Positions 14,512 to 57,513 of a stretch of DNA of 64,000 nt are shown here, in pieces (position 1 is the stretch's first letter; the number at the start of each line of letters is the position of its first letter). The stretch comes from Escherichia coli (GTDB taxonomy: Bacteria > Pseudomonadota > Gammaproteobacteria > Enterobacterales > Enterobacteriaceae), in NCBI RefSeq assembly GCF_050920415.1, contig NZ_CP169309.1, one strand, 5' to 3'. Under the pieces are notes generated by a model. That model searched no databases. It was not told the DNA's origin and saw only the letters and a program-made list of their open reading frames with translations. The position numbers were made by a program, and so were the translations under genes.

Positions 14512-15915
14512 ATGGAGATGTATTTTAAAAGAATGAAAGATGAGTGGACCGGACTTGTCGAACAGGCAGATCCGCTCATTCGTGCCAAAGCCGCGGAAAT
14601 TGCCGTTGCGCATGCCCATTACCTGAGCATTGAGTTTTATCGGATTGTCCGTATTGACCCGCATGCCGAAGAATTCTTGAGTAATGAACAAGTTGAGCGG
14701 CAGCTGAAAAGTGCGATGGAACGCTGGATTATTAATGTGCTTTCTGCCCAGGTTGACGATGTTGAAAGGCTAATACAAATCCAGCATACCGTCGCAGAAG
14801 TGCATGCCCGCATCGGCATTCCAGTAGAAATTGTCGAGATGGGGTTTCGGGTGCTGAAAAAAATCCTCTATCCGGTGATTTTCTCTTCGGATTATTCTGC
14901 CGCAGAAAAACTTCAGGTCTACCATTTCTCGATTAACAGTATTGATATCGCGATGGAAGTCATGACCCGCGCGTTTACCTTTAGTGACAGTAGTGCCTCA
15001 AAAGAAGATGAAAACTATCGTATCTTCTCGTTACTGGAAAACGCCGAAGAAGAAAAAGAACGCCAAATAGCCTCAATCCTTTCATGGGAAATTGACATTA
15101 TCTATAAAGTTCTGCTGGATTCTGATTTAGGCAGTAGTTTGCCTTTAAGCCAGGCTGATTTTGGCCTGTGGTTTAACCATAAAGGTCGACATTATTTTAG
15201 CGGCATTGCCGAAGTGGGTCATATCTCCCGCCTGATTCAGGATTTCGACGGTATTTTTAATCAAACCATGCGTAATGCAAAAAATTTGAGCAACAAAACT
15301 CTGCGGGTGAGATTTTTATTACAGATAAGAAATACCGTATCGCAAATTATTACCTTGCTGCGTGAATTATTTGAAGAAGTATCTCGCCACGAAGTGGGTA
15401 TGGATGTACTGACAAAATTACTTAACCGCCGCTTCCTGCCGACCATCTTTAAACGCGAAATTGCCCATGCCAACCGGACCGGAACCCCCCTGTCAGTGCT
15501 GATTATTGACGTTGATAAATTCAAAGAGATCAACGATACGTGGGGCCATAACACCGGTGATGAAATTTTGCGTAAAGTTTCTCAGGCCTTTTACGACAAC
15601 GTCCGCAGTAGTGATTATGTTTTTCGTTACGGGGGAGATGAATTTATCATTGTCCTGACTGAAGCTTCTGAAAACGAAACGTTACGTACTGCAGAACGTA
15701 TTCGCAGTCGGGTGGAGAAAACCAAACTGAAAGCCGCAAACGGCGAAGATATTGCCCTCTCACTTTCCATCGGTGCCGCCATGTTTAATGGTCATCCTGA
15801 CTATGAGCGCCTCATTCAAATAGCCGATGAAGCTCTGTATACGCCAAAAGACGAGGTAGAAACCGTGTTGAACTCTGGAAAGCCAGTCTTTAGATGCGCC
15901 AGGATGCAGAGGTAA
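14512..15915 (+). CDS. dosC: Heme-containing diguanylate cyclase (globin-coupled sensor, GGDEF); 3' end apparently frameshifted
   Basis: GGDEF motif (RYGGDEFIIV) present; ORF is 467 aa whereas an alternative frame from about 15843 encodes the canonical GGDEF C-terminus AKRRGRNRVELWKASL and would give 460 aa. Confidence 0.85.
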   Translation: MEMYFKRMKDEWTGLVEQADPLIRAKAAEIAVAHAHYLSIEFYRIVRIDPHAEEFLSNEQVERQLKSAMERWIINVLSAQVDDVERLIQIQHTVAEVHARIGIPVEIVEMGFRVLKKILYPVIFSSDYSAAEKLQVYHFSINSIDIAMEVMTRAFTFSDSSASKEDENYRIFSLLENAEEEKERQIASILSWEIDIIYKVLLDSDLGSSLPLSQADFGLWFNHKGRHYFSGIAEVGHISRLIQDFDGIFNQTMRNAKNLSNKTLRVRFLLQIRNTVSQIITLLRELFEEVSRHEVGMDVLTKLLNRRFLPTIFKREIAHANRTGTPLSVLIIDVDKFKEINDTWGHNTGDEILRKVSQAFYDNVRSSDYVFRYGGDEFIIVLTEASENETLRTAERIRSRVEKTKLKAANGEDIALSLSIGAAMFNGHPDYERLIQIADEALYTPKDEVETVLNSGKPVFRCARMQR

Positions 15916-15917
15916 TC

Positions 15918-18317
15918 ATGAAGCTAACCGATGCGGATAATGCCGCCGATGGCATTTTTTTCCCCGCCCTTGAGCAAAATATGATGGGCGCGGTGTTAAT
16001 TAACGAAAATGATGAAGTGATGTTTTTCAACCCCGCCGCAGAGAAACTCTGGGGGTACAAACGCGAAGAAGTCATTGGCAAAAACATTGATATGCTGATT
16101 CCGCGAGATTTGCGTCCCGCGCATCCTGAATACATCCGTCACAACCGTGAAGGCGGTAAAGCGCGCGTCGAGGGGATGAGTCGGGAGCTGCAGCTGGAGA
16201 AAAAAGACGGCAGTAAAATCTGGACCCGTTTTGCGCTATCGAAAGTGAGCGCCGAGGGTAAAATTTATTACCTGGCGCTGGTACGGGATGCCAGCGTAGA
16301 AATGGCGCAAAAAGAACAGACCCGACAATTGATTATTGCTGTTGACCATCTCGACCGACCGGTGATTGTCCTCGATCCGGAACGCCATATTGTGCAGTGC
16401 AATCGCGCATTTACCGAAATGTTTGGTTACTGCATTAGCGAAGCCAGCGGTATGCAGCCCGATACACTCCTGAACATTCCAGAATTCCCTGCTGATAACC
16501 GCATTCGTTTACAACAGTTGCTATGGAAAACCGCCCGCGATCAGGACGAATTTCTGCTGTTGACGCGCACCGGTGAAAAAATCTGGATTAAAGCCTCTAT
16601 CAGCCCGGTCTATGATGTGCTCGCGCATCTGCAGAACCTGGTAATGACTTTCTCGGATATCACCGAAGAACGGCAAATCCGCCAGCTTGAAGGCAATATT
16701 CTCGCCGCCATGTGCAGCAGCCCGCCATTTCATGAAATGGGGGAAATCATTTGTCGTAACATCGAATCTGTTCTCAACGAATCGCATGTTTCGCTGTTCG
16801 CGCTGCGCAACGGGATGCCGATACACTGGGCGTCATCTTCGCACGGTACAGAAGTTCAAAATGCGCAAAGCTGGTCAGCGACCATTCGTCAGCGTGACGG
16901 CGCACCGGCGGGGATCCTGCAAATTAAAACCTCGTCAGGAGCAGAAACCAGCGCCTTTATCGAACGCGTGGCAGATATCAGCCAGCATATGGCCGCGCTG
17001 GCGCTGGAACAGGAAAAAAGCCGTCAGCATATTGAACAACTCATCCAATTTGATCCGATGACCGGTCTGCCAAATCGCAATAACCTGCACAATTACCTCG
17101 ATGACCTGGTCGACAAAGCCGTCTCTCCGGTGGTCTATCTCATCGGTGTTGACCATATTCAGGATGTGATTGATAGCCTTGGCTATGCGTGGGCCGATCA
17201 GGCATTGCTGGAAGTGGTCAATCGCTTTCGTGAAAAACTCAAACCGGATCAGTATCTCTGTCGTATCGAAGGTACGCAGTTTGTCCTCGTGAGCCTGGAA
17301 AACGACGTCAGCAACATTACCCAAATCGCCGATGAGCTACGGAATGTGGTCAGCAAGCCGATAATGATTGACGATAAACCATTCCCGCTCACCTTGAGCA
17401 TTGGCATCAGCTACGACGTGGGTAAAAACCGCGATTACCTGCTCTCCACTGCCCATAACGCGATGGATTATATTCGCAAGAATGGCGGTAACGGCTGGCA
17501 GTTCTTCAGCCCGGTGATGAACGAAATGGTGAAAGAACGATTGATATTAGGCGCAGCGCTGAAAGATGCGATTAGCAATAACCAACTGAAACTGGTTTAC
17601 CAACCGCAAATCTTCGCAGAAACGGGTGAACTGTATGGTATCGAAGCCCTTGCTCGCTGGCACGATCCTCTGCATGGTCATGTGCCCCCTTCACGGTTTA
17701 TTCCTCTCGCAGAAGAGATTGGCGAAATCGAAAATATTGGGCGCTGGGTCATCGCGGAAGCTTGCCGTCAGTTAGCAGAATGGCGTAGCCAGAATATTCA
17801 TATTCCAGCGTTATCCGTTAACTTGTCTGCGCTGCACTTCCGCAGTAATCAGCTTCCTAATCAGGTGTCTGATGCAATGCAAGTCTGGGGCATTGACGGC
17901 CACCAGCTAACGGTGGAAATCACCGAAAGCATGATGATGGAACACGATACCGAAATTTTTAAGCGCATCCAGATCCTGCGCGATATGGGCGTGGGTTTAT
18001 CGGTAGATGATTTTGGTACGGGTTTTTCCGGGTTATCCCGCTTAGTCAGTCTTCCGGTAACGGAAATCAAAATTGACAAAAGTTTTGTTGATCGTTGTCT
18101 GACTGAAAAACGCATCCTTGCCTTACTTGAAGCTATTACCAGCATTGGGCAAAGCCTCAATTTAACCGTCGTAGCGGAAGGCGTCGAAACCAAAGAGCAA
18201 TTTGAGATGCTACGCAAGATTCACTGTCGCGTTATTCAGGGATATTTCTTTTCCCGCCCCCTGCCCGCCGAAGAAATTCCAGGCTGGATGAGTAGCGTGT
18301 TACCGCAGAAAATCTGA
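15918..18317 (+). CDS. dosP: Heme-regulated c-di-GMP phosphodiesterase (PAS-GGDEF-EAL)
   Basis: 799-aa product starting MKLTDADNAADGIFF; EAL domain motifs at C-terminus; RBS GAGG before ATG 15918. Confidence 0.95.
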   Translation: MKLTDADNAADGIFFPALEQNMMGAVLINENDEVMFFNPAAEKLWGYKREEVIGKNIDMLIPRDLRPAHPEYIRHNREGGKARVEGMSRELQLEKKDGSKIWTRFALSKVSAEGKIYYLALVRDASVEMAQKEQTRQLIIAVDHLDRPVIVLDPERHIVQCNRAFTEMFGYCISEASGMQPDTLLNIPEFPADNRIRLQQLLWKTARDQDEFLLLTRTGEKIWIKASISPVYDVLAHLQNLVMTFSDITEERQIRQLEGNILAAMCSSPPFHEMGEIICRNIESVLNESHVSLFALRNGMPIHWASSSHGTEVQNAQSWSATIRQRDGAPAGILQIKTSSGAETSAFIERVADISQHMAALALEQEKSRQHIEQLIQFDPMTGLPNRNNLHNYLDDLVDKAVSPVVYLIGVDHIQDVIDSLGYAWADQALLEVVNRFREKLKPDQYLCRIEGTQFVLVSLENDVSNITQIADELRNVVSKPIMIDDKPFPLTLSIGISYDVGKNRDYLLSTAHNAMDYIRKNGGNGWQFFSPVMNEMVKERLILGAALKDAISNNQLKLVYQPQIFAETGELYGIEALARWHDPLHGHVPPSRFIPLAEEIGEIENIGRWVIAEACRQLAEWRSQNIHIPALSVNLSALHFRSNQLPNQVSDAMQVWGIDGHQLTVEITESMMMEHDTEIFKRIQILRDMGVGLSVDDFGTGFSGLSRLVSLPVTEIKIDKSFVDRCLTEKRILALLEAITSIGQSLNLTVVAEGVETKEQFEMLRKIHCRVIQGYFFSRPLPAEEIPGWMSSVLPQKI

Positions 18318-51170: not shown

Positions 51171-52307
51171 TTACGAAAGCCCGCTCCCCGCAAGGACTGA
51201 CGCCAGATACTTTCTGTCCATGGCTGCTTTTCGCATCTTACGTCTTAACCCTGCCTTGAATACCTTATCATTCGTCAAAATATTAATAGCGATGTGCCGT
51301 ATCCCTGAAAATAATTCTGCTGCATTTCCTCTTCTTATTTTGCAGTCGTCTTCATTCATTACCACGTCCAGACGCCAGTGCAGCTTATTCTCCACGTGCC
51401 AGTGATTTCGGATCGCTGTGGCGAACTTCTCTGCGGTTAAATCAGCAGAACTGATATAATATCTGACCGTCATTTCTGGCTCTTTCTTTTGTTCTGCTAT
51501 TATTGACCGAAAGGAGACTGCCACGCATAATTTCTTCAGACCTTTCCATTCAAACGTGAAATCAATAAGTTCATCAGGGACATCGCAAACAATATGAAGA
51601 CGGATTTCTTCTCTGCCGTGACTCTTTTCACTAATTGCGTAACTGTCATGCTCTGGATTATTTAATTCTTTCAGCGGAAATTTTTCCTCGAAGGCTTTAT
51701 TTAGCCGCCCCTGGTTTCCTTTTACAGCGAATAAATAATCACCTCCCTGTTTTTGTATCTTCTCTGCAATATCTTTCTGGCAACCCATCGCATCAGTTGT
51801 GATGATTTTTCCTTTAATATCCAGCATGTTAAGAAGTTCTGGGATAGCTGTAATCTCATTGGATTTCTCATCCGTCTTGATCTGTCCGATGACCAGACTG
51901 TGCATTGTTGAGAACGCACTAATGACATGAATCGCTCCCCTGCGGCGACTCTTGTCATAAGAGTGCCGGAGCGTTTTTCCATCAATTGCAATGACGTCTT
52001 TATCATCTGAAGAATGACATTCACGCATCCGGTTAATAAAGCATTCGTGAAATTTTGCAGGACTGATACATGATACAACTCTGGCAATAGTATCGTGAAC
52101 AGGAATACCATTTTCAAAATCACCATATTGCTTCAAAAAATCGAGATGAGTTTCCCCGAAATCCTCTATATCTTCCCAGCCTTCTGCACCCGAAATAACG
52201 GCGCAAATAGTCAACAGTAGAATATCCGATAATTTATGCTCCACTTTCCAGGCTTGTCTGTAATCGGGGATAATAGAAATATGTTCCATCAATTTTTTAA
52301 GTTCCAT
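51171..52307 (-). CDS. ydcC: ISAs1-family transposase (Rhs H-repeat-associated protein)
   Basis: 378-aa [40 protein letters not shown]..., the characteristic H-rpt ORF of E. coli Rhs elements. Confidence 0.9.
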
Positions 52308-52439: not shown

Positions 52440-54323
52440 GAGTAGGCCACCGGAACCTCCCCGACAGCCTCTCGCAGAACCGTACGTGAAACTCTCGCTT
52501 CATACGGCTCCCGTCAGGCAAACGCGCTTCCTGGTCCTGCTTTCCAGTGGGCAAACAACTCCGGCTTCTCTTTTGACAGTCTTTCCATTAGCTGACACGC
52601 CTTCGTCTTTCTATACCACAGGGTTTTATATTTCTTTCTCGCCCACGCAATCAGCGTCAGATTAATATATCTGCATACTTTCTTCATCGCTGATTTGTGG
52701 TATCTCGCGTAATAATTCAGCCACCCCGATATTATCAGATTCAGCCACTTCGCAATATCTTCGAGACTCATCTCCACCCTGCGTCTGATCCACAGTTTCC
52801 TGAGTTTTCCAATCATGCCTTTCTGCGCACGGTTACTCGCCGCCGGGCTGAAACTCGTAAAGAGGTTTCCCCGCCGGTGGTTACGTGCTCTTCGCGCTCT
52901 GAACGTATACCCCAGAAAATCAAACTGCACTGTTTCATGGTTCGCCTGTCGTTCGCTGTCTTTGCAGTAAACTATTTTCGTTTTCTCCGGATGTAATTCC
53001 AGTCCACATTCCTGAAAACGTTTTGCCAGCTTATTCAGTAATTCCTCTGCCTGTTGTTTACTGCCACAATGAATTAATCCATCATCTGCATAACGGCACC
53101 AGGGAATTTCCGGATAATGTAACGTCAGCCATTTATCAAACACATAGTGCAGAAATAAATTCGCCAGTACCGGGCTGATGACTCCACCCTGTGGCGTACC
53201 TTTATTTCTTTCCTTCAGTGTTCCATCCGGCATCTGCACCGGCGCTGTCAGCCAGCGGCGAATAGACAGTCTTACCCATTTATCCGCACAATGTTTATCT
53301 ACTGCCCTGAGTAATAAATCGTGGGGGATATTATCGAATAACCCTTTAATATCAAACTCAAGACACCAGTCGTATTGCCAGCAACGTTTTCTGGTGACTG
53401 CTATTGCATCCAGCGCTGATTTTCCATGCCGGTATCCGTATGAATCATTCAGGAAATAACGCTCCACTAATGGTTCAAACGTTACCAGCACCGTCATCTG
53501 CGCTATTCTATCGCTTACTGTCGGTATTCCTAAAAGTCTTTTGCTGCCATCCTTCTTCGGAATTTCCACCGCACGCACTGGCGGCGGCATCCAGCTTCCC
53601 GACGATAACCTGTTCCAGATTTTGTACAGATTTCCTTTCAGATCCCGCTCAAAATCTTTCAGCGTCTGGTTATCCACTCCGGCAGCTCCGGCATTCGCCT
53701 TTATCCGCCGGTACGCTTCCACCACATGCAATTTACTGACCTGAAACGGTTTTGTCTGTTCACACACAGTCTCCTCCTGCCTACAGTTGGGCTGTGATGC
53801 AGACTGCCCGACGCTGTCCCTTCGCTCCACGTTCATTACAAACGCTTCCTCACTACTACGAACAGCTCTGCCCCGGTTTCGCACATCGATACTCTCATAC
53901 TCATAATTTCGGTTATTTGTAATTCTCTCTTGACATTGCGACGACCGGTTCCCGTAGTTCCTGCAAAGAGCCCGATACAGCGTCATGCCTGCTATACACC
54001 GGACATCATTCACGCAGCATTCGGAATTCACCCGTAAATTAATCCCGGCGGTATCACGAAACCTCCGGTTTTGATGTCACTTAGGACTAACGACGTTTCA
54101 ACACAGGTTCGGGTTTACTCATCTCACTGTATCTCACATAGGATCAGATCTCGTCTGATCGTTCCCCCTGCGCTCACTACCATGGCTCTTTACCACAGCA
54201 GCCGGGGTTGTTTGGGACCGACTTCCGACAGCAGATCCCGGTGGGCCTGCCACCATCTCTTCACAAGCTTATGCTTATTACATGCAAAACGTCCCGTTTT
54301 GCATCTTTGTGCCTACGGCACAC
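52440..54323 (-). mobile_element. Group II intron (boundaries approximate)
   Basis: On the minus strand: 5' GUGUG-type start near 54323, internal RT/maturase ORF, and a canonical domain V hairpin GAGCCGTATGAAGCGAGAGTTTCACGTACGGTTC (plus coordinates 52477..52510) followed by a domain VI-like helix. Confidence 0.8.
52514..54031 (-). CDS. Group II intron-encoded reverse transcriptase/maturase
   Basis: 505 aa with RT motifs including YADD (RYADDGLIHC) and a C-terminal maturase (domain X) region; stop codon abuts domain V. Confidence 0.9.
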   Translation of the reverse strand: MNSECCVNDVRCIAGMTLYRALCRNYGNRSSQCQERITNNRNYEYESIDVRNRGRAVRSSEEAFVMNVERRDSVGQSASQPNCRQEETVCEQTKPFQVSKLHVVEAYRRIKANAGAAGVDNQTLKDFERDLKGNLYKIWNRLSSGSWMPPPVRAVEIPKKDGSKRLLGIPTVSDRIAQMTVLVTFEPLVERYFLNDSYGYRHGKSALDAIAVTRKRCWQYDWCLEFDIKGLFDNIPHDLLLRAVDKHCADKWVRLSIRRWLTAPVQMPDGTLKERNKGTPQGGVISPVLANLFLHYVFDKWLTLHYPEIPWCRYADDGLIHCGSKQQAEELLNKLAKRFQECGLELHPEKTKIVYCKDSERQANHETVQFDFLGYTFRARRARNHRRGNLFTSFSPAASNRAQKGMIGKLRKLWIRRRVEMSLEDIAKWLNLIISGWLNYYARYHKSAMKKVCRYINLTLIAWARKKYKTLWYRKTKACQLMERLSKEKPELFAHWKAGPGSAFA

Positions 54324-55840: not shown

Positions 55841-56050
55841 AGTATTAACGTCTTTACTTGATGGATGCTCTGAAAGATTATTTTCATTTGTGAGAATCTG
55901 AATCGTACCATTACGATTCTCTTAGAAATATCATTAAATACGCTACCGCCCTACCCTGATAGACTGGCCCCCTGAATCTCCAGACAACCAGTATCACTTA
56001 AATAAGTGATAGTCTTAATACTAGTTTTTAGACTAGTCATTGGAGAACAG

Positions 56051-56416
56051 ATGATTGATGTCTTAGGGCCGGAGAAACGCAGACGGCGTACCACACAGGA
56101 AAAGATCGCAATTGTTCAGCAGAGCTTTGAACCGGGGATGACGGTCTCCCTCGTTGCCCGGCAACATGGTGTAGCAGCCAGCCAGTTATTTCTCTGGCGT
56201 AAGCAATACCAGGAAGGAAGTCTTACTGCTGTCGCCGCCGGAGAACAGGTTGTTCCTGCCTCTGAACTTGCTGCCGCCATGAAGCAGATTAAAGAACTCC
56301 AGCGCCTGCTCGGCAAGAAAACGATGGAAAATGAACTCCTCAAAGAAGCCGTTGAATATGGACGGGCAAAAAAGTGGATAGCGCACGCGCCCTTATTGCC
56401 CGGGGATGGGGAGTAA
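56051..56416 (+). CDS. insC: IS2 transposase OrfA
   Basis: 121-aa product [47 protein letters not shown]... Confidence 0.95.
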
Positions 56417-57279
56417 GCTTAGTCAGCCGTTGTCTCCGGGTGTCGCGTGCGCAGTTGCACGTCATTCTCAGACGAACCGATGACTGGATGGATGGCCGCC
56501 GCAGTCGTCACACTGATGATACGGATGTGCTTCTCCGTATACACCATGTTATCGGAGAGCTGCCCACGTATGGTTATCGTCGGGTATGGGCGCTGCTTCG
56601 CAGACAGGCAGAACTTGATGGTATGCCTGCGATCAATGCCAAACGTGTTTACCGGATCATGCGCCAGAATGCGCTGTTGCTTGAGCGAAAACCTGCTGTA
56701 CCGCCATCGAAACGGGCACATACAGGCAGAGTGGCCGTGAAAGAAAGCAATCAGCGATGGTGCTCTGACGGGTTCGAGTTCTGCTGTGATAACGGAGAGA
56801 GACTGCGTGTCACGTTCGCGCTGGACTGCTGTGATCGTGAGGCACTGCACTGGGCGGTGACTACTGGCGGCTTCAACAGTGAAACAGTACAGGACGTCAT
56901 GCTGGGAGCGGTGGAACGCCGCTTCGGCAACGATCTTCCGTCGTCTCCAGTGGAGTGGCTGACGGATAATGGTTCATGCTACCGGGCTAATGAAACACGC
57001 CAGTTCGCCCGGATGTTGGGACTTGAACCGAAGAACACGGCGGTGCGGAGTCCGGAGAGTAACGGAATAGCAGAGAGCTTCGTGAAAACGATAAAGCGTG
57101 ACTACATCAGTATCATGCCCAAACCAGACGGGTTAACGGCAGCAAAGAACCTTGCAGAGGCGTTCGAGCATTATAACGAATGGCATCCGCATAGTGCGCT
57201 GGGTTATCGCTCGCCACGGGAATATCTGCGGCAGCGGGCTTGTAATGGGTTAAGTGATAACAGATGTCTGGAAATATAG
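56374..57279 (+). CDS. insD: IS2 transposase OrfB (DDE integrase domain)
   Basis: 301-aa ORF overlapping insC in the -1 frame, typical IS3-family arrangement. Confidence 0.95.
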
Positions 57280-57513
57280 GGGCAAATCCACCTGATAACA
57301 TGATCTGCACTGCGTTATCATATCGACATGTTTCTCTATATGCGAAGAGATGTTTTATTTTCGGATTAAATTAAATTGATATTCAATATAAAATACAGAA
57401 TCACATCAGCGACATAAATAGTTGTAACAACTTCAATTACCATTCATAGCAAACAAATAGACGTCCAGTTAACTTTGCCGATGATTTATTAACATTAATC
57501 TCCGGCATTGTTG

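Follow-up and report, generated by a model that had tools for sequence, protein, structure and literature searches.

The dosC gene (also dgcO or yddV) of this Escherichia coli isolate lacks a single T close to its 3′ end, and the last 17 residues of the encoded diguanylate cyclase (IAKRRGRNRVELWKASL) are swapped for 24 unrelated residues; the deletion allele is private to one assembly among those searched. As the most likely reading, we lean toward a recent, real loss-of-function deletion in dosC on the isolate's own branch.

A one-base lesion at the 3′ end of dosC

In the window, that is, the whole 64-kb stretch of DNA analyzed here, the list of open reading frames places dosC at positions 14512 to 15915 of the forward strand, encoding a protein of 467 aa that ends in ...ADEALYTPKDEVETVLNSGKPVFRCARMQR. 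Residues 1 to 443 are native, and residues 444 to 467 are read in the wrong frame. Alignment puts the deletion junction between positions 15841 and 15842 (forward strand), where one T of the Ile444 codon ATC is absent. Exactly one T is missing relative to the three E. coli genomes aligned (reference, CTGTATATCGCC; window, CTGTATACGCC), and the first dosC mismatch with E. coli MFDS1022581 falls at window position 15842. The original prediction, which had proposed a 1-bp frameshift at the 3′ end of dosC with the indel near 15841 to 15843, is borne out in both respects. It had also suggested a homopolymer error as something to look for at this site; the surrounding sequence (TATA|CGCC) is not a homopolymer, and that route is therefore not directly applicable.

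The native end of the 460-aa protein (...YIAKRRGRNRVELWKASL) is absent from the product, in which an unrelated tail follows Y443, while the native tail persists in another frame. Its coding sequence occupies positions 15843 to 15893 (forward strand) and reads AKRRGRNRVELWKASL before the native TAG at 15891 to 15893. Every residue of this out-of-frame peptide agrees with residues 445 to 460 of PDB 4ZVE, a solved structure of the DosC GGDEF domain, and the two-frame pattern is therefore not a product of chance. Putting the T back yields a 460-aa DosC that is identical to that of MFDS1022581 (annotated dosC coding sequence, 1383 nt) and differs from a K-12-like DosC at 8 residues; the lengths given beforehand, 467 aa as is and 460 aa when restored, were both right.

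The deletion allele is absent from all 5,426 complete E. coli genomes searched, 5,313 of which carry the T allele as a control, and from all metagenome contigs, 27 of which have the T allele. A protein identical to the 467-aa product is likewise missing from a collection of approximately 15 billion proteins, although frameshifted genes in NCBI-derived genomes receive no protein record and the missing protein is therefore weak evidence for such genomes. A wild-type dosC with the same sequence or the same 467-aa tail, named at the outset as the observation that would overturn the frameshift, thus appears in none of the complete genomes, metagenome contigs, or proteins searched. Several hits of query length raised the idea that the allele is common to B2 strains; we rejected it, as these hits carry a different 1-bp deletion (GCC to GC) located 3 nt downstream, within a 5′-deleted remnant of the gene.

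What the frameshift removes from the GGDEF domain

The frameshifted protein retains the domain order of DosC/DgcO: a globin sensor (Protoglobin, PF11563, residues 26 to 155), the DosC middle domain (DosC_2nd, PF21118, residues 180 to 289), and a C-terminal GGDEF domain (PF00990, residues 297 to 448). All three have been solved for E. coli DosC (globin, PDB 4ZVA/4ZVB; middle domain, 4ZVC/4ZVD; GGDEF, 4ZVE to 4ZVH), and these chains match the frameshifted protein at E values of 1e-74 to 1e-104; the 4ZVE sequence is identical to the intact GGDEF domain here. The GGDEF match covers model positions 3 to 157 of 161 with 161.8 bits in the frameshifted protein and positions 3 to 161 with 171.3 bits in the intact one, a cost of 9.5 bits. 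Both N-terminal domains and the RxxD I-site (RSSD) are unaffected, and the GGDEF A-site is kept at residues 374 to 378 in the frameshifted and restored proteins alike. The upstream metal- and guanine-binding segments DVDKF (333), EINDT (339), and NTGDE (347) are also unaltered; they align with the PleD segments IDIDFFKKINDTFGHDIGDE, in which D327, N335, and D344 have metal- and guanine-binding roles (PMC7288161).

The AKRRGRN motif (AKxxGRN), in contrast, is missing: V, E, and T stand in place of G449, R450, and N451, and all residues beyond are unrelated. DosC K446 and R450 align with PleD K442 and R446, whose side chains bind GTP phosphates (PMC7288161). The frameshift was predicted to remove the conserved GGDEF C terminus, which holds for the GRN of the motif and all residues beyond but not for Lys446, which is kept by chance because AAA reads as lysine in both frames. 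Going by alignment and Pfam, the frameshifted protein does not retain the C-terminal phosphate-binding Lys/Arg pair together with the last strand of the GGDEF fold.

On our preferred reading, a very recent single-base deletion would have removed the T of the Ile444 codon in this isolate's lineage. The globin sensor and middle domain would survive in the product, as would most of the GGDEF domain with its A-site and RSSD I-site; Gly449, Arg450 (the counterpart of PleD Arg446), Asn451, and all that follows would be lost. By analogy with PleD, DosC has probably lost its cyclase activity; the outcome would be a catalytically dead and probably unstable enzyme, with dosC reduced to a null allele or a strong hypomorph and on its way to becoming a pseudogene. 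As dosP is intact, the strain would be like the many E. coli and Shigella lineages in nature that possess DosP but no DosC. The chance retention of Lys446 is an observation that speaks against full loss; separately, some degenerate Shigella diguanylate cyclase genes still raise c-di-GMP (PMC11327459).

Real deletion or consensus error

The original prediction left two options, a real frameshift in the strain or a single-base indel in the assembly; the analysis supports that framing, with both still live and not separable by sequence alone. The closest complete genome is that of E. coli MFDS1022581, with approximately 99.99% identity to the window. The two differ by 7 SNPs, one IS2 insertion, and, in approximately 62.7 kb aligned, a single gap, which is the dosC deletion. 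No stop arises from any of the 7 SNPs, and the expectation that the other recognized genes would have their normal lengths holds as far as tested. When changes are polarized with outgroups, two G-to-A SNPs, the IS2 insertion (with its 5-bp target duplication), and the dosC deletion are derived on the branch of the window itself. These SNPs and the IS2 are genuine and so mark an independently evolving lineage, into which one small indel fits. Two further ideas were rejected: that the window has its origin in Shigella or in some other lineage rich in pseudogenes, given its near identity to MFDS1022581, and that it is MFDS1022581 minus one base, given the 7 SNPs (two derived on the window side) and the IS2.

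If the deletion is instead a sequencing or assembly artifact, the T is present in the isolate, its DosC is a complete 460-aa protein, and the consensus is short of one base. We give this explanation a substantial chance, if somewhat less than even. The allele has no second occurrence in the metagenome contigs, the protein collection, or the 5,426 complete genomes, which is how an error would look, and the rest of dosC is identical to that of the nearest relative. The exact DosP protein of the window is present in 119 blocks of public assemblies; in the one contig displayed out of 24 read, the neighboring dosC encodes 460 aa and has the T allele. The window also runs unbroken through IS2, ISEc1, and a group II intron, and such contiguity through multicopy mobile elements suggests a long-read or hybrid assembly, for which a 1-base deletion would be the usual residual error. 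Against this, the deletion is the sole indel in the aligned sequence, and all 75 homopolymer runs of at least 6 nt are equal in length to those of MFDS1022581, none being affected, which argues for a well-polished consensus. Nor does the site resemble the usual contexts of long-read error, since it is neither a homopolymer nor near a Dam or Dcm motif (no GATC or CCWGG within approximately 20 nt). That the deletion is real rather than a consensus error is what we infer from this balance.

The dosC-dosP junction and natural dosC lesions elsewhere

The gene order digH, dosC, dosP is that of annotated relatives. The downstream gene of the dosCP operon, dosP (pdeO), is intact at positions 15918 to 18317 on the forward strand and encodes 799 aa according to the list of open reading frames and the RefSeq annotation of a relative; an in-frame upstream ATG at 15894 would give an 807-aa form. 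Direct reading places the new TAA stop of dosC at 15913 to 15915 (forward strand), 2 nt before the dosP ATG, compared with 24 nt for the native stop. A Shine-Dalgarno-like AGAGG lies at 15908 to 15912, and the new stop stands directly 3′ of it, overlapping the spacer.

We considered whether a real deletion might be partly rescued by a −1 slip of tRNA-Lys on CC-AAAA-G (15844 to 15850), giving a 460-aa DosC with I444T and A445P. E. coli is known to allow slippage of a single tRNA on A-rich tetranucleotides, AAA at 15847 to 15849 and at 15846 to 15848 would permit perfect re-pairing, and the −1 frame is native from there onward. However, the sequence reads G_CCA_AAA, which is no canonical X_XXY_YYZ heptamer; the 101-nt downstream RNA folds no more stably than shuffled sequence (z = −0.32), offering no stimulatory structure; and the two-frame arrangement recurs in none of the complete genomes. 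The heptamer, structure, and conservation that would mark programmed −1 frameshifting are all absent at the deletion site. Efficiency would probably be well under a few percent, and the slipped product would place a proline inside the conserved YxAK helix. Rescue is extremely improbable.

It is also very unlikely that a real deletion was selected, with readthrough of the dosP Shine-Dalgarno sequence altering translational coupling and the DosP level and a dead DosC staying on in complex with DosP as a scaffold that senses O2. The shift of the stop across the spacer after AGAGG would fit such a scenario, as would the sensor and middle domains that Pfam finds intact; yet the allele is a singleton with no spread or recurrence in the genomes and metagenome contigs searched, the junction has no RNA structure for coupling to open, and the pattern is indistinguishable from that of a neutral or mildly deleterious new mutation. 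We accord similarly little credence to the fuller version of this idea, in which one base shifts the strain toward a low-c-di-GMP state by keeping dead, O2-sensing DosC as a partner of DosP while raising DosP through altered coupling.

In stationary-phase E. coli, DosC ranks among the diguanylate cyclases with the strongest expression, and the production of curli and PNAG has been reported to depend on it. If the deletion is real, the isolate is without DosC and keeps its partner phosphodiesterase DosP, so that local c-di-GMP could drop and curli and PNAG could be affected; the private single-base lesion would then represent the earliest stage of the decay of GGDEF/EAL genes that is well documented in particular lineages of E. 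coli and Shigella. If the assembly is at fault, the matter is one of annotation only, and an automated pipeline of the PGAP type should mark dosC as a pseudogene with a frameshift. The deletion is ordinary either as a knockout or as a consensus error, and neither raises a new question.

Compared with E. coli DosC, the product has the same domain order, and its gene the same site between digH and dosP, but residues 444 to 460 are exchanged for 24 out-of-frame residues, giving 467 aa without AKRRGRN. It is already common for dosC to be lost and dosP kept, as in B2 strains and Shigella. Of the 5,350 complete genomes that gave a match, approximately 1,089 align over less than 80% of the dosC 3′ query; those sampled have only a dosC remnant beside an intact dosP. 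In Shigella flexneri 2457T, dgcO carries a truncating deletion, and a construct of it produced no signal for c-di-GMP (PMC11327459). B2-type strains (e.g., JJ2434) and 2457T thus likewise combine a defective dosC with an intact dosP, and the JJ2434 remnant also has a 1-bp deletion, 3 nt from that in the window. Their lesions, however, are large, lineage-wide deletions of most of the gene, whereas the window lacks one base, in one assembly, in a gene that is otherwise perfect. Another natural precedent is the phosphodiesterase gene yjcC (pdeC) of E. coli Fec101, in which a natural 1-bp deletion replaces 49 aa with 44 unrelated aa and apparently inactivates the enzyme (PMC10459773). In both cases a 1-bp deletion in a c-di-GMP turnover gene swaps the C terminus; Fec101 YjcC is an experimentally tested EAL phosphodiesterase, whereas the dosC allele lies in a GGDEF gene and is known from its sequence.

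The dosC lesion and its occurrence

The reading frame of the diguanylate cyclase gene dosC in the window (14512..15915, plus strand) encodes a 467-aa product ending ...ADEALYTPKDEVETVLNSGKPVFRCARMQR, and a second frame from 15843 reads AKRRGRNRVELWKASL, with a stop at 15891-15893; the ORF list and translation bear out the original observation of a native C terminus displaced into another frame. Alignment of 15780-15930 with three complete Escherichia coli genomes shows that exactly one T is absent from the window, between 15841 and 15842 (reference CTGTATATCGCC versus window CTGTATACGCC), which places the lesion where it had been proposed, near 15841-15843, in codon ATC (Ile444). Restoring the T gives the anticipated 460-aa product, which is identical to the annotated DosC of MFDS1022581, the closest complete E. 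coli genome, and differs from a K-12-like DosC at 8 residues.

The deletion allele is private to the source of the window, as it has no match in complete genomes, metagenome contigs, or a collection of ∼15 billion proteins. Of the 5,426 complete E. coli genomes searched, 4,261 matched 15640-16040 over its full length, all at <100% identity (best, 99.8%), and among the full-length matches listed, every record spans 402 nt versus 401 nt in the query. We also used a 54-nt megablast query centered on the deletion junction, with a required 28-nt exact word, so that only deletion-carrying genomes could match; it matched none of the 5,426 genomes, while the control query with the T restored matched 5,313. 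A 24-nt exact pattern across the junction found 0 metagenome contigs, against 27 for its T-restored counterpart. The exact 467-aa product is absent from the protein collection, where the window's exact DosP (the downstream phosphodiesterase) occurs in 119 blocks. Twenty-four contigs with this exact DosP were read: the one displayed has the T allele in a dosC of 460 aa, and the remaining 23 were grouped with it as similar. A wild-type dosC with the same sequence or 467-aa tail, which had been named as one observation that would speak against a frameshift, was found in none of the genomes, metagenomes, or protein collection.

Mutation or consensus error

From 9000 to 30000 the window matches MFDS1022581 (NZ_CP169399.1) at essentially 100%, with the next best genome at 99.3%. 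The two differ across the whole window by only seven substitutions (24657, 28530, 48946, 57481, 59817, 61321, and 61501), one 1,331-bp insertion (∼55962-57292), and the single 1-bp gap in dosC. When polarized with strains N96 and EC42405, five substitutions are derived in MFDS1022581, three of them nonsynonymous (osmC G124R, adhP A240S, and yddE T268M), and two, 57481 and 61501, are derived on the window side, both G to A, one intergenic and one synonymous in pqqU. On the window's own branch, the dosC deletion is therefore accompanied by 2 SNPs and one IS2 insertion. The IS2 copy (55962-57292, 1,331 bp) is intergenic, near yncG, and is flanked by a 5-bp target duplication, CCTGA; its 301-aa ORF (56374..57279) matches the IS2 transposase (TnpB) model at 727.6 bits, and the corresponding site in MFDS1022581 is empty.

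These comparisons support the two readings originally offered, a true frameshift or a single-base assembly indel. We lean slightly toward a real mutation. A consensus or assembly error is a serious contender, though we put it at somewhat below even odds: the allele is a strict singleton, and the contiguity of the window across IS2, ISEc1, and a group II intron suggests a long-read-based assembly, of which a 1-base deletion would be a typical residual error. However, this is the single indel across ∼62.7 kb, the window's branch carries other genuine changes, and the sequence context is not prone to consensus error. The deletion falls outside any homopolymer, no Dam or Dcm site is close by, and all 75 homopolymer runs of at least 6 nt are equal in length between the window and MFDS1022581. 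At 2 SNPs per 64 kb, this branch would be expected to hold a few true indels across the whole genome.

Elsewhere in the window, a mobile-element cluster at ∼50.7-54.1 kb, with ORFs at 51171..52307 and 52514..54031 on the minus strand, is shared with MFDS1022581. It contains an IS256 remnant, the transposase of an ISEc1 (ISAs1 family), and the reverse transcriptase/maturase (ltrA) of a group II intron. Further on towards yncG, N96 and EC42405 carry T6SS Vgr/PAAR/Rhs genes; this interval in MFDS1022581 holds only small hypothetical genes. The mechanical ORF list splits fdnG (31342-34389, minus strand) into 803 and 195 aa, and RefSeq gives one 3,048-nt CDS; the split presumably reflects the known in-frame TGA selenocysteine codon rather than a lesion.

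Consequences for DosC and the dosP junction

Both domains upstream of the GGDEF domain escape the frameshift: the globin sensor occupies residues 26-155 (PF11563) and the DosC middle domain residues 180-289 (PF21118). Also unchanged are the RSSD I-site (residue 365), the GGDEF A-site (residues 374-378), and the upstream metal- and base-binding segments. From residue 444 onward, IAKRRGRNRVELWKASL becomes TPKDEVETVLNSGKPVFRCARMQR, in which K446 and K457 are the sole unaltered residues, retained by chance because an AAAA run encodes Lys in either frame. Pfam scores the GGDEF domain at 171.3 bits (model positions 3-161) in the T-restored protein but at 161.8 bits (positions 3-157) in the frameshifted one. 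When DosC is aligned with PleD (PDB 2WB4 numbering), K446 pairs with PleD K442 and R450 with PleD R446, two PleD residues whose side chains bind the GTP phosphates (PMC7288161). The replaced segment would span the last strand and the final part of the last helix, and we infer that the frameshifted DosC is catalytically dead and probably destabilized.

The native dosC TAG (15891-15893) lies 24 nt upstream of the dosP ATG (15918). The frameshifted frame instead crosses a Shine-Dalgarno-like AGAGG (15908-15912) and ends with TAA at 15913-15915, 2 nt before that ATG, a geometry that could alter translational coupling. Nothing else suggests a selected coupling effect, and RNA folding of the junction gave no structure stabler than shuffled sequence (z = −0.32). 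A −1 slip of tRNA-Lys on the CCAAAAG run would put ribosomes back in the native frame but is highly improbable, as the site has no canonical slippery heptamer, stimulatory structure, or conservation. In the interval 15894-15917, an in-frame ATG directly after the native stop (TAG-ATG) would give an 807-aa DosP; some PDB DosP entries are 806 to 807 aa, and RefSeq has 799 aa starting at 15918. The frameshifted dosC frame overlaps this alternative start.

Comparison with known dosC loss

dosC is commonly lost while dosP is retained. Of 5,350 complete genomes with a match, about 1,089 have <80% coverage of the dosC 3′ query. Beside an intact dosP, those sampled carry only a short dosC remnant, which is labeled a partial or frameshifted "diguanylate cyclase domain-containing protein." B2-type strains keep roughly the last 164 nt of dosC beside intact dosP (2501-2664 in JJ2434), with two length variants of the match, 311 and 312 nt. 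The shorter variant, as in JJ2434, has a different 1-bp deletion (GCC to GC), 3 nt away from the one in the window, plus a TGG-to-TGT change. In Shigella flexneri, a deletion truncates dgcO, and no c-di-GMP signal is obtained from it (PMC11327459); in E. coli YjcC a natural 1-bp deletion swaps the C terminus and the enzyme is apparently inactive (PMC10459773). In the window allele, a gene that is otherwise perfect lacks one base, a lesion private to this strain; it is a fresh instance of a well-known type of event, and in that sense an ordinary finding.
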